From: Candidatus Uhrbacteria bacterium RIFOXYB12_FULL_58_10
Lineage (GTDB): Bacteria > Patescibacteriota > Patescibacteriia > UBA9934 > GWF2-40-263
Assembly (NCBI GenBank): GCA_943359455.1
Contig: CALRHL010000002.1
Location: 7,665 to 71,664, forward strand
DNA: 64,000 nt
Direction of reading: 5' to 3'
Part shown: positions 3,137-60,557 of the stretch, in pieces
How the letters are laid out: each line of letters begins with the position of its first letter
Numbering within the stretch: position 1 is the stretch's first letter
Notes under the pieces: generated by a model
Databases searched by the model: none
The model's input: the letters and a program-made list of their open reading frames with translations, nothing else
Told to the model about the DNA's origin: nothing
Position numbers and translations under genes: made by a program

Positions 3137-3236
3137 TCTCCCAGTAGCTATGCTGAGCAAAGCTCAGTCATTCCACTAAACTGGAACTCTTGCTCAAAGG
3201 CACGCCAGTTCACGGTTCGGAACGCGTCCAATAGAG

Positions 3237-3265
3237 GGAGCCATGCACCGTCTGGTGCATGGCGG
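3237..3265. repeat. Hairpin repeat A copy 1 (GGAGCCATGCACC-GTCT-GGTGCATGGCGG)
   Basis: Near-identical copy at 8468-8496. Confidence 0.8.
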
Positions 3266-3314
3266 AGCCATCGAGTGGTGGTTTCGCTGTGCTTAGACAT
3301 TAAGGTGAACTAGG

Positions 3315-3627: not shown

Positions 3628-3677
3628 ATTGAGAAATATAAATCTTCACATCATCATAACCGGACCCCATAACCGTG

Positions 3678-3713
3678 CTGGATAATTCCGTTATCCGGAC
3701 CTGACCCCGACTG
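3678..3713 (-). repeat. Dispersed 35-nt hairpin repeat B, copy 1
   Basis: CTGGATAATTCCGTTATCCGGACCTGACCCCGACTG. Identical copy at 8570-8605, inverted variants at 13212-13267, diverged copy at 60510-60535. Internal stem GGATAA/TTATCC. Confidence 0.8.
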
Positions 3714-3962: not shown

Positions 3963-4394
3963 ATGCCGAATACCAATATCGAACAACTTATTTCATTGAT
4001 TATTACCACCACTCGTCTTATTCGGGAACACACTAAACATCGAGAAAAAATTGATCCCCTTTCCTATCTTCAATTGGGAACGCTTCGTTATGTGGCTGAA
4101 AAAAACAACCCACCCATGAAAGATGTTGCCGACCACCTCTGCATTACCCCTCCTTCCGCAACTTCTCTCATCAACAATTTGACAAAAATGAAGCAGCTTG
4201 AACGCATCTATGATAAAGATGACCGCAGACTTATCAGGCTTGCTATTACTGCCAAAGGCAGGAAAACGCTTGAGGATGGGTTTAAGAAAATAACAATACG
4301 AATGCAAAGAGTGTTAAGCAAGCTCAGCGAAAAAGAAAGAAGCGATTTTATTAAAATCCTGGAAAAACTCTCCCGCGCGTATAGTAATAAATAA
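3963..4394 (+). CDS. MarR family transcriptional regulator
   Basis: 143 aa with a winged-HTH MarR-like pattern (LSYLQLGTLRYVAEK...DDRRLIRLAITAKG), immediately upstream of the efflux operon. Confidence 0.75.
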   Translation: MPNTNIEQLISLIITTTRLIREHTKHREKIDPLSYLQLGTLRYVAEKNNPPMKDVADHLCITPPSATSLINNLTKMKQLERIYDKDDRRLIRLAITAKGRKTLEDGFKKITIRMQRVLSKLSEKERSDFIKILEKLSRAYSNK

Positions 4395-4399
4395 TTTTA

Positions 4400-6151
4400 A
4401 TGAAGATTATGATCCAAGTTCCAAAAAGACCAATTATTATTGTGTTACTCGTCATTGTTCTTGGAGGAGTTATTGGTAGTTACATCTATTTCGGCGGGGA
4501 CAGCGCTCTGGCATATGATTTTATTGTCGCTGAAAAACGTGACCTCGTTCAGGACGTAAGTGTCACGGGACGCGTTAAGCCGGCAGAGAGCGTTGATCTT
4601 GCATTTGAGAAAAGCGGAAAAGTTGCACTGGTCACTGCGAATATCAGTGATAAGGTGAGGCCTGGCCAAATACTTGTCACTCTTGAAAATTCAGAACTCT
4701 TGGCGGAACTCTCCCAGGCAGAAGCCGGAGTGGAGAGTGCTGAAGCCCAACTTAAGCAATATCAAGCATCTGTTGAAACGGAGCAGGCAAGCCTTGCCGA
4801 ACTGGAGCAAGGTACAAGGCCTGAAGAAATACAAATTGCAGAAACAAAAGTTTCAAATGCGCAAAATTCAGTTGAAGATGCGGAACTGAACCTCAATAAT
4901 GTACAAAGTAAAGCTAGTAACGATTTAGTAAATGTCTATGGAGACACCATGGATATATTAAATGATGCATATACCAAAGCAGATAATGCCTTGCATGCTC
5001 AAATTGACGAGATGTTTAATAATGATGATGGTAGTAGTCCTAAATTGACCTTCATAGTAACTAATTCCCAAGCTGAGATTGATGTAGAATTGCAGCGGTT
5101 CATTGCAGGAAATGAACTGGAGGATTTTAAGGTGGAACTAGACACTTTTTCAACTTCTGACTTCCCATCACTTGACCAAGCACTTGTAAATGCAGAAGGT
5201 CATTTAGTTATTATTAGGGATTTTCTTAATCGTCTTGGTGACGCAATAAATAGTTCTGCTGGGATATCTTCAAGCACGGTCAGTATATACAAAAGCAACT
5301 TGAATGTAGCGCGTGTCAATGTCAATACAGTTATCTCCAATAGTAACAACCAAGAACAAATTATTGCTACACAAAAGGAAATCAACCAGAGTAGTGTCAC
5401 TACTGCTGAAGCTCAAGTTAACGATGCTCAATATGCTCTCTTGTCCGCAGAAACAGAATTGACTCTCAAAAAAGCTGGTTCAACTCTCGAGCAAATTACT
5501 GCCCAAAAAGCACAGGTTGAACAAGCCGAAGCCAATGTCACCTCTCAGGAAGCTCAAATAAAGCAAACGAAAGCAAATGTCCAAAACATCGAAGCGCGAC
5601 TTTCAAAAACAATCGTTTACTCACCAATCAATGGAATCATTACAACACAAGACGCTAAAGTTGGTGAGATAGTTTCTGCCAACACTATTATTGTTTCTCT
5701 AATTTCAGAAGCAAAATTTGAAATCGAAGCCAATGTGCCGGAAGCGGATATCGCAAAAGTAAGCGTGGGTAACACCTCGTTGGTTACGCTTGACGCCTAC
5801 GGCAGAGATGTTGTTTTTGAAGCGAAAGTGGTTGCTATTGATCCAGCGGAAACCATTGTGGACGGCGTTGCAACCTACAAAGTGACATTTCAATTTACCA
5901 AAGAGGATGAGCGCGTTAAGTCAGGAATGACCGCGAATATCGATATCGCAAGCGACCGCAGGGTAAATGTTATTGCTGTGCCACAGCGATCCATCATCAG
6001 GAAAAACGGAGATAAATTCGTAAGAATATTAAACAGTGAAGATTTTGAAGAGGTAAAAGTAGAAACAGGGCTCCGCGGTTCTGATGGAAATATTGAGATT
6101 ATAAAAGGAGTCAATGATGGTGACAAAGTAATAACTTTCAGCGAAGAATAG
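4400..6151 (+). CDS. HlyD/MacA-family efflux periplasmic adaptor subunit
   Basis: N-terminal TM segment, long coiled-coil (repeated AELSQAEAGVESAEAQL-type heptads), C-terminal beta-barrel region. Confidence 0.8.
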   Translation: MKIMIQVPKRPIIIVLLVIVLGGVIGSYIYFGGDSALAYDFIVAEKRDLVQDVSVTGRVKPAESVDLAFEKSGKVALVTANISDKVRPGQILVTLENSELLAELSQAEAGVESAEAQLKQYQASVETEQASLAELEQGTRPEEIQIAETKVSNAQNSVEDAELNLNNVQSKASNDLVNVYGDTMDILNDAYTKADNALHAQIDEMFNNDDGSSPKLTFIVTNSQAEIDVELQRFIAGNELEDFKVELDTFSTSDFPSLDQALVNAEGHLVIIRDFLNRLGDAINSSAGISSSTVSIYKSNLNVARVNVNTVISNSNNQEQIIATQKEINQSSVTTAEAQVNDAQYALLSAETELTLKKAGSTLEQITAQKAQVEQAEANVTSQEAQIKQTKANVQNIEARLSKTIVYSPINGIITTQDAKVGEIVSANTIIVSLISEAKFEIEANVPEADIAKVSVGNTSLVTLDAYGRDVVFEAKVVAIDPAETIVDGVATYKVTFQFTKEDERVKSGMTANIDIASDRRVNVIAVPQRSIIRKNGDKFVRILNSEDFEEVKVETGLRGSDGNIEIIKGVNDGDKVITFSEE

Positions 6152-6152
6152 T

Positions 6153-6872
6153 ATGCCGCTCATCGATGTCAAAAACATAGGAAAAACCTATTACAACGAT
6201 CGTGTGGAAACACATGCTCTTCGTGATGTGTCTTTTGAAATTAACGAGGGAGAATTCGTTGCTATCATGGGGCCTTCGGGATCAGGCAAATCAACCTTGC
6301 TTCATATCTTGGGTTTCTTGGACAGACACACCAATGGAAAGTACCGCTTTGACGGCAAAACCATTGACGACTATTCAAAAGAAGAAATTGCCCATGTACG
6401 AAATAAAAAAATGGGGTTTGTTTTTCAATCATTCAATCTGCTTGCAAGAACGACCGTTCTTGAGAATGTAAAACTGCCGCTTCTCTATTCTGACGTTAAA
6501 AAATCTATGCGCGACGAGATCGCGCTCAAAGCCATTGAGTCAGTGGGGCTTTCTCATCGCATCAGTCACGAATCCTCTCAGTTGTCAGGTGGCGAAAAAC
6601 AGCGCGTAGCAATCGCCAGAGCGCTAGTGAATAAACCCAATGTAATATTTGCAGACGAGCCAACGGGCAACCTTGATTCTAAATCAGGAAAAATGGTAAT
6701 GGAGTTTATTCAAAAACTGAATGAAGAAGAAGGGCATACTATTATTCTAATTACCCACGAAACCTATACTGCTGAACACGCCCAGCGAATTATTAGAGTC
6801 CTCGACGGCAATATAGAAAGTGATACAAAGGTAAATCACCGCCACAGGGCTCGCGATCATTTTGAGAAATAA
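6153..6872 (+). CDS. ABC transporter ATP-binding protein (MacB-type)
   Basis: Walker [13 protein letters not shown] signature [15 protein letters not shown], Walker B IFADEPT. Confidence 0.9.
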
Positions 6873-6895
6873 CTACTGGTGAATGTATTCAAACT

Positions 6896-8134
6896 ATGAT
6901 ATTTAGCGACAGTTTTACAACAGCCCTCGGTGGGCTTCAAACAAACAAATCTCGATCCGCACTTACCATACTCGGCATTGTTATTGGCATTACCGCCATT
7001 ATTTTAGTGATGTCCGTCGGCCAAGGAGCTGAAGACCTTATTTTAAATCAAGTACGGGGTTTGGGTTCTCAAACAATTATTATTGAACCCGGCAGAGAGC
7101 CGACGGGCCCTTCGAGTTTTGCCGAGCTTTTTACCGATTCTCTAAAACCAAAAGATGTGGATGCGTTGCGGAAACCTTCCAATGTGCAGGGGTTAAAAGA
7201 ATTAACTCCAATGGTCATGCAAGTGGCCGCTGTCACTTTCGAAAATGAAACAGTCAGGACAAATGTCATCGGCGCCTCTGAGCTTATCGCTAAGATTCTT
7301 GATATTTTTCCGAACAAGGGATCATTTTTTACCGATGAAGATATTAGGCAAAAAGCGAATGTTGCGGTTATAGGATCAGAAATCAAGAGCAAACTCTTTG
7401 GCCCTTCCGAGGCCCTTGGAGAGAAAATAAAATTAAAGGGGCGAACCTTTCGCATTGTCGGCATACTGCCCCCGAAAGGACAGGTTGCCCTCTTTAATGC
7501 TGACGATATGGTGGTGGTACCCTATACAACCGCCCAGCAGTACCTTTTTGGCATTAATCATTTTAATACCATTCTTGCTCAAGCTGAGACCGAAGACATG
7601 ATGCCCCGCGTAGTGCGGGACATTGAGCTCACTCTGCGTGAGACACACAACATTGACGACCCCGACAAAGATGATTTTCACGTAACCACGCAAGCCGACG
7701 CGGCCGAACGGGTTCAGACCATCACGGGAATACTAACTGTTTTGTTAGTTTCCGTTGCCGCGATTTCTCTTATTGTCGGCGGGATCGGCATTATGAACAT
7801 CATGTTGGTTTCGGTATCTGAACGAACGCGCGAAATAGGCCTGCGCAAAGCTCTGGGAGCGACAGAAAAAGACATCATGACGCAATTCCTTTTAGAAGCA
7901 GTGATGCTTACCGCGCTCGGCGGAGTTGTCGGAATAGCTCTCGGCGCCGCTTTTTCTTTTCTTGCCTCACTTATCCTTAGCAGAATTGTCGCTCTCGGTT
8001 GGGTATTTACCTTTCCTATCGCGGCCGCCCTTTTGGGGTTGGGAGTGGCGGCGTTCGTAGGGCTTGTGTTCGGCCTCTATCCCGCCCGCCAAGCCTCCCT
8101 TAAAAGCCCGATGGAAGCTCTGCGCTATGAGTAG
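6896..8134 (+). CDS. ABC transporter permease (MacB/FtsX-like) with periplasmic domain
   Basis: N-terminal TM, large periplasmic domain, C-terminal FtsX-like 3-TM bundle (RKALGAT motif). Confidence 0.85.
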   Translation: MIFSDSFTTALGGLQTNKSRSALTILGIVIGITAIILVMSVGQGAEDLILNQVRGLGSQTIIIEPGREPTGPSSFAELFTDSLKPKDVDALRKPSNVQGLKELTPMVMQVAAVTFENETVRTNVIGASELIAKILDIFPNKGSFFTDEDIRQKANVAVIGSEIKSKLFGPSEALGEKIKLKGRTFRIVGILPPKGQVALFNADDMVVVPYTTAQQYLFGINHFNTILAQAETEDMMPRVVRDIELTLRETHNIDDPDKDDFHVTTQADAAERVQTITGILTVLLVSVAAISLIVGGIGIMNIMLVSVSERTREIGLRKALGATEKDIMTQFLLEAVMLTALGGVVGIALGAAFSFLASLILSRIVALGWVFTFPIAAALLGLGVAAFVGLVFGLYPARQASLKSPMEALRYE

Positions 8135-8467
8135 GAATGTAAAATTATTCAAGGGAGTTTCTTAATGTCGTCCACGCACGGGTGCGGTGGGGAAAAAGCG
8201 ACTGTAAAAATAGATAGCCTCGCCCGAAAAAATTTGTGCCGTCCGTCCCCGCCTTCGCTAAAGCTACAGACGGGCAGGTGAGGGTGGGATACTACGAGCG
8301 AAGCGAGCAGTAATCTTCCAATTTATAGGAATTTTTAATAAGTAAGTTCGAGCTTGGCTGTATAGATACACCAACGAATCAATAAGCCGAATCCGTCGTC
8401 GTCAGGATTGGTATCACAAGATGCCTCTCAAAAACTGAAATCGCAGTTCTAACATCCTCCACGACGC

Positions 8468-8496
8468 GGAGCCATGCACCGTCTGGTGCATGACGG
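8468..8496. repeat. Hairpin repeat A copy 2
   Basis: GGAGCCATGCACCGTCTGGTGCATGACGG. Confidence 0.8.
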
Positions 8497-8569
8497 ATCC
8501 ACAACGCTCGCTTTGAAAAAAGTGAGCGTTGTTATAATATAGGGGTCATGTATGCAGAATCAGTATCAG

Positions 8570-8605
8570 ATTTGGGTACTGGATAATTCCGTTATCCGGA
8601 CCTGA
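8570..8605 (-). repeat. Dispersed 35-nt hairpin repeat B, copy 2
   Basis: Identical to the copy at 3678-3713. Confidence 0.8.
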
Positions 8606-8923
8606 CCCCGACTGCAATTTCGATAAACTGCCCAAGCCACCTGCATTTGAGCCGACTTATTGTGCAAAATGTGGCGAGAGAATCAATTTGCCTAACGGCG
8701 GGTATTCTACGTTATGCGGTGTCTACCACTGCGACCTCTGTCCGATCTCTGATAAAGAGCGGGCGAAAATTATTCGCGATTACAAAAAAGCCAGTCATCT
8801 CTGAGTGGAACTTTTTATGCAACTATAGACGGCAAATCTCTAGTTGAGATGGAACGGTAAAAGTTGTATTGCTCTATCTGCTATTTACTGATATAATCTG
8901 ATATATAGCTTATATCAGTAAAT

Positions 8924-9991
8924 ATGCAGGATAATAAGGCAAATTTTGATAAACGTCTCAGAACACCCGAACCTCACATCGTGGCTCTTTTGGCTCAAAT
9001 TGATGGGATTCGTGGAGAGTTCAAATCGGGGCTTCGGATGACCCCTCAGGCCATAACCAATCTCAAGCGATCCACACTTGTGACGTCAGCTGGTGCTTCT
9101 ACCCGTATTGAGGGTGCAAAGCTCACCGACAATGAGGTGCAGAAAATCATGCAGGGTCTGGCGGTTTCGAAATTTGCGGATCGAGATTCGCAGGAGGTGC
9201 AGGGCTATCTGGAGACATTGCAAAATGTTTTTGATAGCTTCGAGACGTTACCGCTTCGTGAGAGCACGATTCAATCACTTCACAAGGAACTTCTTAAATA
9301 TTCCACGAAGGATGAACGACAACGCGGAGCATACAAGAAAAAAGAAAATACTGTTGGCGTGCTCGGTCCTGATGGCCAGGTTGCGCGTATCATGTTCGAA
9401 ACGACTCCAGCCTACCTGACGCCAAAAGAAATGCAGGAGCTCGTGGAATGGACGGCTGATGCGTTCGACAACAATCGATTCCATCCGCTTCTCATCATCG
9501 CAAACTTCATCGTGGAGTTCCTAAAGATTCACCCGTTCGAGGATGGAAACGGTCGTCTTTCGCGAGTCCTGACCAACTTTCTGTTGCTTCGATCCGGATA
9601 CCAGTTTGTGCAGTACGCCTCTCATGAGCAACTTGTTGAGAAGCGTAAGGATGAATACTACGTTGCACTCCGTAAGTCGCAGGAAACTTTCCGGACCCAA
9701 GGCGATACGATCTCTCCTTGGCTGAACTTTTTTCTTGCAGTGGTAAAAGAGCAAGCGACAAGAGCGTTGGTTTATCTCGAAGAAGAAAAAGTCGAAGACA
9801 CGCTTTCGCCAAAACAATACGAGGTCTGGAAATTCATCTCCTCTGTTAGTGAAGCAAGCCCGAGCGAGGTTGTAAAAGGAACAGGCATACTCATGCCGAC
9901 GGTTCGTCAAGGACTGACTCGGTTGATTGAGCTTGGAAAAGTGAAACGAATCGGAAGAGGTCGAGGAACTCGGTATGTGAAGTTGTATTAA
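8924..9991 (+). CDS. Fic/DOC family protein with C-terminal winged-HTH
   Basis: Canonical Fic motif HPFEDGNGRLSR; C-terminal region (LTRLIELGKVKRIGRGRGTRY) looks like a wHTH. Confidence 0.85.
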   Translation: MQDNKANFDKRLRTPEPHIVALLAQIDGIRGEFKSGLRMTPQAITNLKRSTLVTSAGASTRIEGAKLTDNEVQKIMQGLAVSKFADRDSQEVQGYLETLQNVFDSFETLPLRESTIQSLHKELLKYSTKDERQRGAYKKKENTVGVLGPDGQVARIMFETTPAYLTPKEMQELVEWTADAFDNNRFHPLLIIANFIVEFLKIHPFEDGNGRLSRVLTNFLLLRSGYQFVQYASHEQLVEKRKDEYYVALRKSQETFRTQGDTISPWLNFFLAVVKEQATRALVYLEEEKVEDTLSPKQYEVWKFISSVSEASPSEVVKGTGILMPTVRQGLTRLIELGKVKRIGRGRGTRYVKLY

Positions 9992-12973: not shown

Positions 12974-13211
12974 GGATTTCTCCCTTGAGAATATCTATCA
13001 TGAATCATTAAAAATGACTATAGATGTGCTACATTCTAACAGAATCGCTTTTCATTTCGCTATGCCAAATCATCGGATTTACACAATCAGTTTCGCGCGT
13101 GTTTATCCGCTTTATGTTGCGAAGGCAGAGAAAAAAGGACGCACGAAAATGGAAGTTGATGAAATCATTCGTTGGCTGACAGGATACACTCAAATTAGGG
13201 TCAGCCTTTAG
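12972..13211 (+). pseudogene. DUF2200 family protein, C-terminally truncated at the repeat B copy
   Basis: [36 protein letters not shown] matches the DUF2200 N-terminal half as I recall it. The ORF ends after 79 aa immediately before the repeat at 13212. Confidence 0.5.
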
Positions 13212-13267
13212 GGGTCAGGTCTGGATAGTGGATTATCCTGTTAATTTGTTATCCAGATTTGACCCTA
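13212..13267 (+). repeat. Repeat B copy 3: inverted copy followed by a partial forward copy
   Basis: GGGGTCAGGTCTGGATAGTGGATTATCCTG...TTATCCAGATTTGACCCTACG. Covariation in the hairpin relative to copies 1 and 2 (GGATAgtGGATTATCC versus GGATAAttccgTTATCC). Confidence 0.7.
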
Positions 13268-18416: not shown

Positions 18417-18792
18417 GAGCCTGTTGAAAAACTTCTACCTACCACAATTCCCTGAGCGAAGCGGAGCGTAGTCGAAGGGCATCCCCATTGTCCGAGAGCG
18501 ATTAGGGTCGGGATTTGGGAATTTTCAGTAATCCGAACCTGTCCCAAGTCTTTTCCAAATCAAATTCTTGTCCAACAGAAAAGAAAAAGCGCACCCGACG
18601 GCGGCTAGGAGAACTGAGATTGCGCTCGTTCTCTGCAGAACGGTAGGAGCTTCTGGCTGCTCCGCACTTGCCATCCGCTTCGTCTTCTCCGCTCTTCTCG
18701 AACTGCGAACGAAGAGATGGTATAAGCATCGCGGGCGGCGACCGATGCGACGATCGACGAGCTGGTCGGTTCTGTGAGAGAATGAGGTTCGT

Positions 18793-19485: not shown

Positions 19486-20704
19486 AATTATGGACAAACC
19501 AACTCACACATCGAAACAAGAGCTTATTGATCGGACGGGAGAGTTGTTTCGGGAACAGAAGGAACCTAGGTTTCCGACGGTTCGGGAGAAACTTTTGAGC
19601 GGAGTGGTGAAGCCGGATGCGCAGGTGTTTTTTTCGAGTTTTGATCATTTGAACCCGGCATATCCGAGTCGTATTGTGACGGGAAAGTTGCGTGCGGATG
19701 GAATTGTCTCAGCATTGCAGAATGAAAAAGTTGAAGGGGTAAGCGTTATGCTCGACTTGATTTCTCCCGAGAGTGATCGACAGAATGAAGGTGGTGGGTG
19801 GAGTCTCGGACTTGGAATCGTTCCAGATCAGCTGACGCGTATTTTGCGTGATCGGGAAACTTTTTATGCAAAAAATGAGTTGATTGCCCTTGATCAAGAA
19901 ACAATCCTCCGTGCGTTTTCATTGCAGATAGCAGACGCACTTCTTCCCACCCACCTTACAGGACCAGAACAAGAAACGTATGTGTCACAAATGCTCTGTC
20001 GTTTGTCCACAACGCTTGGGATATACAATTTTGCAGTTGGCGAAGCCCTTCGACGTGGACTTTCTGGCTCAGAGGCGATTGTAGAGTTACGCAATAGTGT
20101 CGAACAGGCGATTGGCCTCGATACTCGTTGGATTCAGGAAGTTCGTCAATCAACGATGCTCAAAAATATCGCGGATGCGCTGGAAGAAATGACACGGGTG
20201 GGATATCCATTTTGGAAAATGCCAGGACAGGAAGGAACTTCTTTCCTTCGTTTTATAACGGAGAAGGGGACAGAGGGAGGAAATGTCATTCACGACAGAG
20301 CCAGCTTTACTTTTTTTGATCGTCATAAAAAACCTGGCAGGACGATTCGTGAGAGTGCGATCTTTGACTTGATGCGCAAAGGAGAAGTGATTCCACGGAC
20401 AAATTTGTTGTTATTTGCCATTATGAGTGCACCAGAAATTCCACACTTTGGAAACACGTATGCACTTGAGCAAGCAAGTGTCGACTGGTTGAACGTTCAG
20501 GGAGATCGCTTAAAGATCGAACCGGATTTTCAAAATTCGATCCCGCTTGGACATGTGGCGATCGGAGGAAAAAAATCGCGATCACTTCTTCCTCTTAGCA
20601 TGCTTCATTTCCCACGTGAGCGATTGCGTGAGATTATCAAGCAAGTTTCAGAAACAGGGGTGATGCCAGACGAAGCTCCGTTTGGTCAAATGAATGCAAG
20701 TTGA
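19469..20704 (+). CDS. Hypothetical protein (~407 aa)
   Basis: Long ORF overlapping the previous stop; probable start at MDKIMDKP (19481). No domain recognised. Confidence 0.5.
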   Translation: MCRMDKIMDKPTHTSKQELIDRTGELFREQKEPRFPTVREKLLSGVVKPDAQVFFSSFDHLNPAYPSRIVTGKLRADGIVSALQNEKVEGVSVMLDLISPESDRQNEGGGWSLGLGIVPDQLTRILRDRETFYAKNELIALDQETILRAFSLQIADALLPTHLTGPEQETYVSQMLCRLSTTLGIYNFAVGEALRRGLSGSEAIVELRNSVEQAIGLDTRWIQEVRQSTMLKNIADALEEMTRVGYPFWKMPGQEGTSFLRFITEKGTEGGNVIHDRASFTFFDRHKKPGRTIRESAIFDLMRKGEVIPRTNLLLFAIMSAPEIPHFGNTYALEQASVDWLNVQGDRLKIEPDFQNSIPLGHVAIGGKKSRSLLPLSMLHFPRERLREIIKQVSETGVMPDEAPFGQMNAS

Positions 20705-28182: not shown

Positions 28183-28255
28183 GCAAAGCGAGTCGAAGGC
28201 CGTTTCCTTCGGACAGCTAAGACGTCCTTCGACTTCGCTCTGCTTCGCTCAGGAA
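28183..28255. repeat. Large REP-like palindrome (TGAGCAAAGCGAGTCGAAGG...CCTTCGACTTCGCTCTGCTTCGCTCA)
   Basis: About 20-bp imperfect stem directly after the aminotransferase stop. Motif words recur at 18452-18480 and in the 102-bp tandem repeat at 57780. Confidence 0.6.
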
Positions 28256-42418: not shown

Positions 42419-42424
42419 ACATGG

Positions 42425-43002
42425 CAGGGGTCCTGGGATGTACAGATCGGATACAGTGGTACAGATATACAGATGTACAGATGTGAAGAGTTGTTTATTG
42501 ACCTGTTCGGATCAGCACATCTGTATATCTGTACTTTTTCTGTACATCCCGTAACAACGAATCCGTATGGAGTTTGTTTATCAAGACCTGAGTTATAAAA
42601 TAAACGGAGTTCTATTTGAAGTTTATAATGAATTGGGTCCTGGATTAAAGGAAAACACTTATCAACGAGCGATTGCAGTTGCCTTATCACACACTGGCCT
42701 CAAGTTTAAGGAACAGGTATACTTTCCATTGAGGTTTAAAAATGAAGTTGTAGGATCACTCTATTTTGATTTCTTGATTGATGAAAAGATCGTTCTCGAA
42801 TTGAAAGTTGGTGAGTATTTTTCACGAAGGAATATAGAGCAAGTTCATCAGTATTTACTCTATTCAGGTTTACATCTCGGACTACTTGCAAACTTCACTC
42901 TTCACGGAGTGAAAATTAAACGCGTCGTCAATTTACAAAATAAATAATCAAATCTGTACATCTGTATATCTTGTACAGATCTGTACATCCCAGGACCCCT
43001 GC
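42425..43002. mobile_element. MITE-like 578-bp element with 24-bp perfect terminal inverted repeats carrying a GxxExxY gene
   Basis: Left TIR GCAGGGGTCCTGGGATGTACAGAT (42425-42448). Right TIR is its reverse complement (42979-43002). Internal GTACAGAT micro-repeats. Confidence 0.7.
42567..42947 (+). CDS. GxxExxY family protein (PD-(D/E)xK-like)
   Basis: GVLFEVYNELGPG matches the GxxExxY signature; 126 aa. Confidence 0.7.
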   Translation: MEFVYQDLSYKINGVLFEVYNELGPGLKENTYQRAIAVALSHTGLKFKEQVYFPLRFKNEVVGSLYFDFLIDEKIVLELKVGEYFSRRNIEQVHQYLLYSGLHLGLLANFTLHGVKIKRVVNLQNK

Positions 43003-43011
43003 TTTATCTGT

Positions 43012-43785
43012 ATGTCGAATCTCATTCAAGAACTCGGACAATTTGGTCTTTCAGAAAAAGAAGCGTCGGTGTATCTTGCCTCGCTTGAACTTGGACCTTC
43101 TCCTGTGCAGGATATTTGTCATAAAGGAAAGGTGAATCGGGCAACCACCTATGTGATGATCGAATCACTCATGAACCGTGGGCTCATGAGTTCGTTTGTG
43201 CGCGGCAAGAAACGATTTTATGTTTCGGAGTCGCCGGAACGGTTGCGCGCTGTGTTGCGAGTTCAGCGAAGAGATCTTGAAAGCAAAGAAGAGCAGTTTG
43301 AAAAAACATTCCCGATGCTCGCGGCACTGTATAACGCCGAAGGAGCAAAGCCGCAGATTCGGTATATGGAAGGGATGGAGGGAGTGAATACGGTGCGAGA
43401 ATTATTTCGAAAGCTCGACGGGGAGATTATTCAGTTTTCTCCGTTTCAACCAGCAACACCTGCTGACGAACTTGCGGAAGGATTAAACGAACATTTAAAA
43501 GAAATGGCAGCCCAAGCAATTCCTTATCGAATCCTGATTTCAATGGATTCACTGCATGTCGATCGCGTTCCAAAATTACCAAACATGGAGATGCGTATTT
43601 TGCCACCAAATCTTTTTCCTACCGAAGCGGAAATTACTGTCCGTGGGACGACAATCTGTATGTATTCTCTCAAGTCAGCCATTTTGGCGATTGTCATTAC
43701 AAGTAAGGAAATGGCTGATGGATTTCGTTCGCTTTTTGAACTCGCGTGGAAAGGGGCAGAAGAATATCCTGTTCGAAAGTCTTAG
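43012..43785 (+). CDS. TrmB family transcriptional regulator
   Basis: N-terminal FGLSEKEASVYLASLELGPSPVQDI wHTH typical of TrmB, plus a C-terminal sensor domain. Confidence 0.7.
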   Translation: MSNLIQELGQFGLSEKEASVYLASLELGPSPVQDICHKGKVNRATTYVMIESLMNRGLMSSFVRGKKRFYVSESPERLRAVLRVQRRDLESKEEQFEKTFPMLAALYNAEGAKPQIRYMEGMEGVNTVRELFRKLDGEIIQFSPFQPATPADELAEGLNEHLKEMAAQAIPYRILISMDSLHVDRVPKLPNMEMRILPPNLFPTEAEITVRGTTICMYSLKSAILAIVITSKEMADGFRSLFELAWKGAEEYPVRKS

Positions 43786-43946
43786 GAGACCTCTGCAAAA
43801 GTCCAGCACGGCTCCAAATCGGCCATCTTCGCACTGGACACATTCACGATTCCTCAATGATATCTGCATATCACCTCGAAATCGTTCATGTGCCCAGTAC
43901 GAATCTGACTCGATTTGGCCTCGTACTGGACTTTTGCAGAGGTCTC
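43786..43946. mobile_element. 161-bp MITE-like element with 25-bp TIRs (1 mismatch)
   Basis: GAGACCTCTGCAAAAGTCCAGCACG ... CGTACTGGACTTTTGCAGAGGTCTC. Nested inner IR CCAAATCGGCC/GGCCAAATCG-like. Solo TIR at 12133-12150. Confidence 0.65.
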
Positions 43947-44048
43947 TTAGAAATAAAAAACGGCTCATGCGTTTTCTTTTCGCTGAGAGCCGTCGAGGAG
44001 AGAGAGGTACGTGCAGAGGCGTACCTTTTTTGGGGAGGAGGATTCGAC

Positions 44049-44895: not shown

Positions 44896-45312
44896 TGAGG
44901 GGAGAGACTCAGTGGGTGTAACCACGAGGTTTATCCCACATGTTCGGAGGCAAGGGATGCAGTGACTTCTCTTGCGAGGAGTGTGCACCATGGTTGTCGG
45001 GCGTATGGGGGGAGTCAGACCTAGGTCCGAGTCCACACATTTGGCAACCCCCGATTCAGTGTTTTAAAGCACCGAACCGGTTTGCTCTCTCCTCCGAGCA
45101 TGTGAGAACCTCCTCACTACGAATTTTTTCTGAGATTTTTTCTGCGAATAACGAATCGGCTACACATCTTACAAATAGCTACGTATTACTACGAATGGTT
45201 CGTTGAAATTTGTTGCTATTTGTATGATATGTGGGAGATTTGTAGTTCGCAGGAAAAATTCGTAGTGAGGGGGTGGGGAAGAGCTCGTGTTACGAGATTC
45301 CCCAGAGTCGGT

Positions 45313-55731: not shown

Positions 55732-55854
55732 CACAAACACTGTAAAATTGTGAGGTGTTGGTGCGCAGCGAGCAGCGCAGTAAGGCGTACAAAGATGTAC
55801 GTCGTCGAGCAGCACAGCTGCAAACCAACAGATCGCAATTTTACAGTGTTTGTG
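55732..55854. repeat. Perfect 19-bp inverted repeat (CACAAACACTGTAAAATTG / CAATTTTACAGTGTTTGTG) enclosing ~85 nt, abutting the tRNA-Thr 5' end
   Basis: 19/19 complementarity. Inner GCGCAGCGAGCAGCGCAG-type repeats. Confidence 0.75.
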
Positions 55855-57771: not shown

Positions 57772-57779
57772 TCCCACTT

Positions 57780-58005
57780 CGCTCTTCGAGCTACGTTAGG
57801 GATGTATCCCACAGAACAGGCGAAGTGGGATGCCCCTAACGAAGCTTGAGCAAAGCGAAGTGGGGCTCTGTTTCTATCCTTCGCTCTTCGAGCTACGTTA
57901 GGGATGTATCCCACAGAACAGGCGAAGTGGGATGCCCCTAACGAAGCTTGAGCAAAGCGAAGTGGGGCTCTGTTCCTATCCTTCGCTCCTCAATCACCAG
58001 AAAAA
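57780..58005. repeat. 102-bp tandem repeat, about 2.2 copies, between tRNA-Tyr and tRNA-Thr
   Basis: Unit CGCTCTTCGAGCTACGTTAGGGATGTATCCCACAGAACAGGCGAAGTGGGATGCCCCTAACGAAGCTTGAGCAAAGCGAAGTGGGGCTCTGTTTCTATCCTT. Copies at 57780-57881 and 57882-57983 differ by 1 nt. Internal hairpins ATCCCAC/GTGGGAT and CGTTAGGG/CCCTAACG. Confidence 0.85.
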
Positions 58006-59748: not shown

Positions 59749-59809
59749 AATGGTATCACGACTCTCTCCAAAAGAGTTGTCGCAGGTTCGATCCCTGCAG
59801 CCCCTGCCA
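59736..59809 (+). tRNA. tRNA-Trp (anticodon CCA), CCA encoded
   Basis: Acceptor AGGGGCT/AGCCCCT, D-arm GTGA-AATGGTA-TCAC, anticodon stem ACTCT/AGAGT with loop CTCCAAA, T-arm GCAGG-TTCGATC-CCTGC, discriminator G. Confidence 0.85.
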
Positions 59810-59909
59810 CGTCGCTCGCGAGCGACGTGGCCTGCCACTCGGATTGAGAAGCGGGTCACGTCACTCACGGACGATGTCGATACAAATACGTCGCTCGCGA
59901 GCGACGTGG
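59807..59909. repeat. Two copies of a perfect GC-rich palindrome (CCACGTCGCTCGCGAGCGACGTGG); the first includes the tRNA-Trp CCA end
   Basis: 24-nt perfect palindrome at 59807-59830. 20-22-nt copy at 59888-59909. Flanking GGCCTGCC / GGCAGGCC are mutual reverse complements. Confidence 0.8.
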
Positions 59910-60271: not shown

Positions 60272-60509
60272 ATCTTGGCAATCTGAAACTGGAATAAAAC
60301 CACCAGAACTCTCTCCTGAGAATCTGTGGGAGGCCGCATTGTCATTCGGTGTGATTTTATCCACGAAAGACGATGAGATGACCAACAGGAAAGAGCGAAA
60401 TTTTAAAAAACCAACAGTTCATTAGCTTGCAGTGTCGCAGTCTGTACATGTCACTGCGAGGCCCTAAGCTGCCTGCTGGCAGGGGCCAGGCAGCATTCTC
60501 TCGAAATCC

Positions 60510-60557
60510 CAATAATCCAGTATCCAGACCTGACACGTCGTTCACGAACGACGTGTC
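60510..60557 (-). repeat. Repeat B copy 4 (diverged) fused to a perfect 12-bp-stem palindrome
   Basis: CAATAATCCAGTATCCAGACCTGACA then GACACGTCGTTC-AC-GAACGACGTGTC. Confidence 0.55.

Follow-up and report, generated by a model that had tools for sequence, protein, structure and literature searches.

The analysed window is a single stretch of DNA with a length of 64 kb. In this window, an exact 36-mer, CTGGATAATTCCGTTATCCGGACCTGACCCCGACTG, is present at two sites, 3678-3713 and 8579-8614, and it was obtained in 0 of 100 shuffles. The block common to the two sites extends to 39 nt with 97% identity (3675-3713 and 8576-8614). Read on the opposite strand, the repeat unit is GGGGTCAGGTC-CGGATAA-CGGAATTA-TCCAG. 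A dispersed family of four loci, beyond what chance would give, had been proposed in a preliminary description of this DNA, and all of the four loci are present. A profile HMM was built solely from 18 ends of other genomes, namely terminal inverted repeats (TIRs), and run on the window. It returned exactly these four loci with the E values listed below (5e-8, 5e-8, 5e-6, and 8e-6), and the next match had an E value of 1.1. The copies and the genes that they touch are as follows.

3655-3668, minus strand: partial second copy beside copy 1 in direct orientation (GGGGTC-CGGTTATG); weak, read from the sequence
3675-3713, minus strand: copy 1, a solo TIR of the C type (GGGGTCAGGTC CGGATAA CGGAATTA TCCAG); profile HMM of foreign TIRs, E 5e-8
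8542-8575, plus strand: degenerate inverted partner of copy 2 (GGGGTCATGTATGCAG...); fold -13 kcal/mol, z -2.9
8576-8614, minus strand: copy 2, a TIR identical to copy 1, tip at 8609-8599; profile HMM, E 5e-8
8610-8804, plus strand: fragment of a zinc-ribbon-like ORF, lacking its start, that sets in at the outer edge of copy 2; 64 homologues
13062-13193, plus strand: truncated DUF2200 gene, residues 1-44 of about 117; homology to full-length relatives
13197-13206, plus strand: partial third tip beside copy 3 (AGGGTCAGCC), exactly where the DUF2200 homology stops
13211-13238, plus strand: left arm of copy 3, a TIR of the T type (GGGGTCAGGTC TGGATAG TGGATTA TCC); profile HMM, E 5e-6
13248-13266, minus strand: right arm of copy 3, a degenerate inverted TIR (AGGGTCAAATCTGGATAAC); hairpin with the left arm, z -4.8
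18504-18545, strand not given: probable fifth locus, a degenerate dimer with the left arm AGGGTC GGGATTT GGGAATTTT; E 1.1
60509-60534, minus strand: copy 4, a TIR of the T type (..GTCAGGTC TGGATAC TGGATTA TTGG); profile HMM, E 8e-6

Copies 1 and 2 had been described as identical and placed at 3678 and 8570. Their identity was confirmed and the second position was corrected, since copy 2 lies at 8579, nine bases away. The tip of copy 1 corresponds to 3708-3698, and copy 2 also shares the next 5 nt outward (3709-3713). Beyond the 39-nt block, the two loci show no likeness except for a second block at 3210-3270 and 8441-8501 (75%). The partial copy at 3655-3668 is missing the AGGTC unit of the tip. 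Copy 2 and its degenerate partner appear to constitute a dimer of about 68 nt with a terminal complementarity of 7 bp, GGGGTCA/TGACCCC. Copy 3 is an inverted pair, made up of the forward copy GGGGTCAGGTCTGGATAGTGGATTATCC and, opposite to it, a degenerate inverted copy (13211-13266). This agrees with the inverted copy and the partial forward copy that had been reported for this position. The diverged copy that had been noted near 60510 was also recovered as copy 4. Of 23 positions, 22 agree with the copy-3 arm, and an abutting palindrome (60535-60554) stands in the place of its GGGG tip.

At the fifth position, the inner 16 nt of the left arm (18504-18525) are identical at 15 of 16 positions to the G-type TIR of another locus, L052, and an inverted partner follows at 18530-18545. 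This is probably a decayed locus of a third subtype, and its E value of 1.1 is not significant alone. The core GGTCAGGTCYGGATA was also searched in the window with at most three mismatches. The search gave 10 matches versus 1.8 expected, and five of the 10 are known arms. The count of the short tip GGGGTCA in the window revealed no enrichment outside the named loci. The arrangement of the copies is variable: dimers occur at copies 2 and 3 and possibly at 18504-18545, and singles at copy 4 and at copy 1, the latter with a partial tandem. Independent assemblies contain the same sequences: copies 1 and 2 recur in L036, copy 4 recurs in L044 and L045, and the truncated DUF2200 product is carried on three contigs. 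Therefore, the repeats are not an assembly artefact. A plasmid database search gave no match.

Two genes beside the repeats are incomplete. The DUF2200 fragment shows 89% identity to full-length relatives over residues 1-44. Its match ends at 13193, with three bases left to the first partial tip, and the missing C-terminal part of 72 residues is encoded nowhere in the 64-kb window. Copy 3 is thus located exactly at the DUF2200 cut, as had been claimed. The match of the ORF after copy 2 with its 64 homologues begins at query residue 2. In the homologues, at least 6-10 further residues precede the domain. The ORF thus lacks its start, and the description of copy 2 as preceding a start-less fragment is correct. 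In the simplest reading, the truncation of the genes would have been caused by an insertion and then an adjacent deletion.

The repeat was searched in other genomes. A scan of one genome per species with the pattern GTCAGGTCYGGATAN{5,6}TTAT produced 35 loci, mostly by chance. A subset of them carries an extra GGG, which is absent from the search pattern, together with a near-identical continuation, GGGGTCAGGTCCGGATAACGGATTAT. The subset includes six matches in five contigs of the MAG CAYPRR01, four copies in the Patescibacteria MAG JAHILS01, and the locus L030 of an Uhrbacteria MAG, which is a perfect inverted dimer of 53 nt. At L020 and L035, two inverted copies with the GGGG outward enclose an ORF of 283-285 aa, which is a Y1 transposase. 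The matches in L004, L005, L008, L021, and L025 (Bacteroidota, a Micrarchaeota MAG, and others) comprise the first 16-17 nt only and were rejected as probable chance, and the one in L008 lies inside a coding sequence. Further loci (L038, L040, and L042) were obtained from a metagenome scan, L040 and L042 being the same locus in two assemblies. Five additional loci (L047, L052, L060, L062, and L063) were picked as members of the transposase family regardless of their flanks. Inverted ends were found in all five of them, and these ends start with GGGGTCAGGTC or its variant with one mismatch.

Both ends are therefore present at eight loci, mostly from Patescibacteria, and the gene is intact in seven (L020, L035, and the five picked by family). 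In L042, the gene is internally deleted, with residues 1-54 joined to residues 254-282, which makes a natural mini-element of 324 bp (3987-4313). The ninth locus, L038, retains a gene fragment and one end only. The flanking layout is as follows: the right tip is found 22-32 nt past the stop codon, and between the left end and the ATG stands a TGNTATAAT promoter. A run of 22 consecutive nt, GGGGTCAGGTCCGGATAACGGA, is common to copies 1 and 2 and to the ends of L020 and L035. By our own arithmetic, about 7e-9 such matches are expected in 128 kb. L063 contains three extra copies within 20 kb, and L060 contains a tandem end. The window copies are homologous to ends that flank the transposase gene in many genomes, and orphan singles, dimers, and tandems as well as the deleted mini-element exist in other Patescibacteria genomes.

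The flanked protein is a Y1/HUH enzyme of 280-294 aa. It matches Pfam Y1_Tnp (1e-12) and NCBIfam NF047646, 'REP-associated tyrosine transposase' (RAYT), with 87.7 bits against a cut-off of 80. The HYH and Y..NPV motifs are invariant in 20 homologues. At the C-terminus, HTH_23, Bac_DnaA_C, and HTH_28 were all detected below the threshold. The top PDB match of its AlphaFold model (pLDDT 80) is 4ER8, E. coli TnpA-REP bound to a REP hairpin, with an E value of 8e-8, followed by the TnpA proteins of ISDra2 and IS608. A phmmer search against PDB sequences gave no match. The transposase family comprises at least 7999 clusters at E<1e-20, and the named members among the best 120 are nearly all from Patescibacteria. 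The host of the window is probably also a member of Patescibacteria or Uhrbacteria-like, since a cluster mate of its Fic protein bears the name Patescibacteria and the closest named homologue of its GIY-YIG protein, with 76% identity, is from Uhrbacteria; a Firmicute host was rejected on these grounds. No homologue of the enzyme is encoded within the 64-kb window. When seven enzymes were aligned, the presumed recognition helix varied with the half-site type of the ends; this correlation is suggestive, but it was set aside as a claim because the proteins are few and confounded by relatedness.

Genes of this kind have been defined as TIRYTs, and the elements as TIRtrons, in which RAYT-like genes are flanked by long terminal inverted repeats and not by REPs (Di Nocera 2013, PMC3733652). 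The end motif of TIRtrons is GGGGWSAS, and their TIRs are dispersed as singles, dimers, and groups in 'moderately abundant families' (PMC3733652). Most TIRYTs were later placed in TnpA-Y1 subclass 2.1, which is characterised by long proteins, a C-terminal Bac_DnaA_C, HTH_23, or HTH_28-like domain, and no REPs nearby (Quentin 2018, PMC6006769). The family found here resembles TIRtrons in several aspects. The Y1/HUH transposase with a C-terminal helix-turn-helix (HTH), sub-threshold here, lies between inverted GGGGWSAS ends, and the ends are also scattered as singles, dimers, and groups. The elements are in both cases mostly found in genomes without classical REPs. The sequence GGGGTCAG, which begins copies 1 and 2 and the left arm of copy 3, fits GGGGWSAS, and the right arm of copy 3 begins with AGGGTCAA. 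On the other hand, the published cases come from Proteobacteria, Acidobacteria, and similar phyla, whereas the present family comes from Patescibacteria. It also has a near-invariant 11-nt tip and concerted half-sites, which are unmentioned in the accessible parts of PMC3733652 and PMC6006769.

The TIRtron of this family is a unit of about 0.9 kb, in which the gene of a TIRYT-type Y1/HUH tyrosine transposase is situated between two inverted ends, and the TIRYT is a relative of RAYT with a C-terminal helix-turn-helix. The repeats of the window are probably orphan copies of its terminal inverted repeat, in single, paired-inverted, and partial-tandem form. The unit is regarded as a TIR rather than a self-standing structured element because Y1-transposase genes of other genomes have this sequence as their inverted ends. 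The family is accordingly the orphaned end of an element class that is known (2013) but obscure. Chiefly new here are the invariance of its 11-nt tip from lineage to lineage and the tandem half-sites that change in concert. In the literature search, neither GGGGTCAGGTC as a bacterial repeat nor TIRtrons in Patescibacteria were found to be described.

The conserved part of the repeat is the outward-facing 11-nt tip GGGGTCAGGTC, which is nearly invariant, and two tandem direct half-sites of 7 nt come after it. Such ends include a CGGATAACGGAATTATCC type and a TGGATA type. The two half-sites differ between lineages but change in concert: CGGATAA/CGGATTA, TGGATAG/TGGATTA, TGGAATC/TGGAATT, GGGATAT/GGGAATT, and GGACTAC/GGACTTT. 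In every YGGA-type variant, the first four bases are equal in both halves. The half-site repeat is absent from the TATATA-type and TTGCTA-type ends and from the decayed right arm of copy 3. The only alternative mini-hairpin, TCCG/CGGA, would be weakened and not preserved by these changes, because they turn its G-C pairs into G-T pairs or mismatches. The concerted change of direct repeats points to one protein specificity reading both halves, or to homogenisation, and not to a stem.

This observation bears on the first reading of the repeat, which was a self-standing RNA or DNA hairpin with its own cellular function, its stem GGATAA/TTATCC being kept by compensatory base changes. A stem of 6-8 bp is indeed possible in copies 1, 2, and 3, and REP-like hairpins 3' of genes can stabilise RNA or serve as terminators in other bacteria (PMC3733652). 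However, the check across 23 distinct ends did not reproduce the covariation. The 5' arm (GGATA) stays the same in every copy, and no pair is altered on both sides in any of the 23 ends. The 3' arm decays: six Watson-Crick pairs are made only in the mutually identical copies 1 and 2, 5+1 pairs in copy 3, 3+2 pairs in copy 4, where the stem is lost, and 4-5 pairs consisting of A/T only in 18 relatives. A solo copy folded as single-stranded DNA is no better than shuffles (z -0.9), and the repeat has no Rfam match at the gathering threshold or at E<=5. The changes that do occur in concert sit in the direct half-sites, and the best conserved part is the unpaired tip. Long hairpins are formed by paired copies, such as the two arms of copy 3 together (-11.5 kcal/mol, z -4.8) and the L030 dimer (z -10), because these are inverted duplicates. 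The strong hairpin at copy 4 is a separate, abutting palindrome. The hairpin is not conserved across the family, and the unit is a transposase end. The structured-hairpin reading, including the inferred functional structure, is largely refuted, and we regard a function of that kind as very improbable.

Two other readings were considered. According to one, copies 1 and 2 are the boundaries of a single recombination or duplication event that imported a 4.9-kb MarR and MacAB-like efflux operon. These copies are direct repeats, identical over the 36 nt plus the 5 nt past the tip; each lies downstream of the second shared block, and together they bracket the genes at 3963-8134. Since copies 1 and 2 share these 5 nt and the second repeat, they may have spread by recombination or duplication rather than by transposition. 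However, the likeness is limited to the two short blocks, and the DNA that separates them is entirely different, namely 407 nt with a GIY-YIG gene at copy 1 and 77 nt at copy 2. Moreover, neither copy 3 or 4 nor the probable fifth locus is part of this segment, and the family is present in many genomes. Such an event, which we consider unlikely, could account for the origin of copy 2 but not for the identity of the repeat. The other reading takes the copies as classical REP/REPIN elements served by a canonical RAYT. The enzyme scores above the NCBIfam RAYT cut-off with TnpA-REP as its top fold match, and the inverted dimers are REPIN-like. As in the REP/REPIN-RAYT systems of E. coli and Pseudomonas, a homologous transposase gene lies between inverted repeats, and scattered non-coding copies include inverted dimers. 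In contrast, neither GTAG/CGTC nor any other tetranucleotide tag was found at the foot of the hairpin, and there is no conserved palindrome inside one unit, in keeping with the solo fold. The present enzyme is also about 120 aa longer. With about 285 aa and an HTH tail, it corresponds to the TIRYTs of subclass 2.1, for which no REPs were found (PMC6006769). The canonical REP/REPIN identity is hence highly unlikely. The orphan TIRtron end remains the preferred reading of the repeats.

Other identities were tried and rejected. The ends of the Tn3 family are inverted repeats of about 38 bp with a GGGG start and an ..ACGYTAAG finish, situated beside a DDE Tn3 transposase. The GGGG start of the present repeat suggested such an inverted repeat, but its inner part is unlike the TAAG-type and the flanked gene is a Y1 transposase. 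The sequence GGTCAGGTCCGGA resembles domain IV of the SRP RNA. No Rfam SRP match was obtained, and the likeness was taken as coincidence.

The TIRtron ends were also compared with two other types of mobile DNA. The enzyme shares the HUH/Y1 catalytic core with the IS200/IS605 family (IS608 and ISDra2; fold matches with E 1e-5). However, the ends of IS200/IS605 are subterminal hairpins in the same orientation and not inverted repeats, and their insertion site is located 3' of a short target sequence. Copy 3, L030, and L042 resemble MITEs in being short non-coding units with the inverted ends of an autonomous element. Unlike MITEs, no target-site duplication is visible at the copies, and several copies are single ends.

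In the mechanism suggested by these comparisons, a cognate TIRYT, present elsewhere in the genome or formerly present, would have bound the ends in the window. Its HUH domain may act at the tip GGGGTCAGGTC and its HTH domain may bind the half-sites. Paired ends could have been copied or moved in trans by the TIRYT, as proposed for RAYTs with REPINs. A single end is unable to transpose alone; therefore, the solo copies would be remnants or products of another process. We know of no experiment on a TIRYT binding or moving its TIRs. It is conceivable, although we hold it for rather doubtful, that the tip GGGGTCAGGTC is the cleavage site and that the half-sites are a double-stranded dock for the DnaA-like HTH tail, a recognition mode that is not known for HUH/Y1 transposases. 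If this is true, TIRtrons would be mechanistically distinct from the hairpin-guided IS200/IS605 and REP/RAYT systems. In the very small genomes of Patescibacteria, the orphan ends would then be hot spots of deletion and rearrangement and in some cases portable promoters.

A repeat that might otherwise be taken for a riboregulator is given a correct label by the assignment as TIRtron ends. The assignment also widens the TIRYT/TIRtron class, which has been little studied, to Patescibacteria, where the transposase family is very large. The near-invariant tip and the co-varying direct half-sites bear on how the TIRYT class recognises DNA. From the two truncated neighbours, the ends are seen to coincide with lost genes in a genome that can spare little DNA.

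Several observations were made at neighbouring features. In L063, a solo left end with a TGTTACAAT promoter (20206-20345) is located directly upstream of a YibE_F gene. This end is identical at 35 of 36 nt, with one gap, to the end before the TIRYT gene at 9960. It may be an orphan end that gives a promoter to a host gene. The operon between copies 1 and 2 (3963-8134) encodes MarR and a MacA/MacB-like ABC efflux system, and the TIRYT gene of L060 has a similar operon at a distance of 3.6 kb.

Small GIY-YIG genes (85-91 aa) are found just 3' of a tRNA gene, and the sites concerned in the window are 3233-3270, 8464-8501, and 59803-59846. The same layout was observed in L064, L065, and L066 (about 2240-2440), L074 (about 2360-2440), and L084 (about 2300-2400). 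The upstream order is the tRNA 3' end (e.g. GGAGCCA), the palindrome TGCACCGTCTGGTGCA, TGGC, and the tRNA 3' end again. This unit is often doubled, and it is followed by a hairpin, a TGNTATAAT promoter, and the ORF. The core in the window, GGAGCCATGCACCGTCTGGTGCATGGCGGAGCCA, is identical at 33 of 34 positions to an Uhrbacteria locus, whereas the GIY-YIG protein of that locus is only 76% identical. Between assemblies, the upstream context of the GIY-YIG loci varies and the downstream context is constant. The unit looks like a cassette that targets tRNA 3' ends, and it may be more novel than the TIR finding. Small GIY-YIG genes precede copies 1 and 4, but a general link with the TIRtron ends was rejected, as no end was present within 2.5 kb at three of three independent homologue loci. 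A CGTC-type palindrome, ACGTCGYTCRCGARCGACGT, occurs in four copies versus 0.03 expected (59809-59828, 59858-59877, 59888-59907, and 60535-60554). Its first copy is fused with the CCA end of tRNA-Trp, and its last is the one that abuts copy 4 and replaces the GGGG tip.

A second TIR-flanked mini-cassette with a GGGG tip and direct sub-repeats was found at 42424-43003. It carries a PD-(D/E)XK nuclease gene (PDDEXK_3, 'GxxExxY' type; 42567-42947, E 6e-30) between 58-nt inverted repeats, which start with GGGGTCCTGGGATGTACAGATC and contain several GTACAGAT sub-repeats. No copy of this repeat was present in any fetched locus. Between tRNA-Tyr and tRNA-Thr, a 102-nt unit is tandemly duplicated with 99% identity (57777-57980). 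The unit is rich in GCGAAG/CTTCGC, and its motifs recur in a 45-nt inverted pair at 18451-18495 and 28209-28253. Three further palindromes or inverted pairs are intergenic: 45135-45259 with 61-nt arms 3 nt apart, 43783-43949 with 39-nt arms, and 55732-55854 with 38-nt arms that end at the first base of tRNA-Thr.
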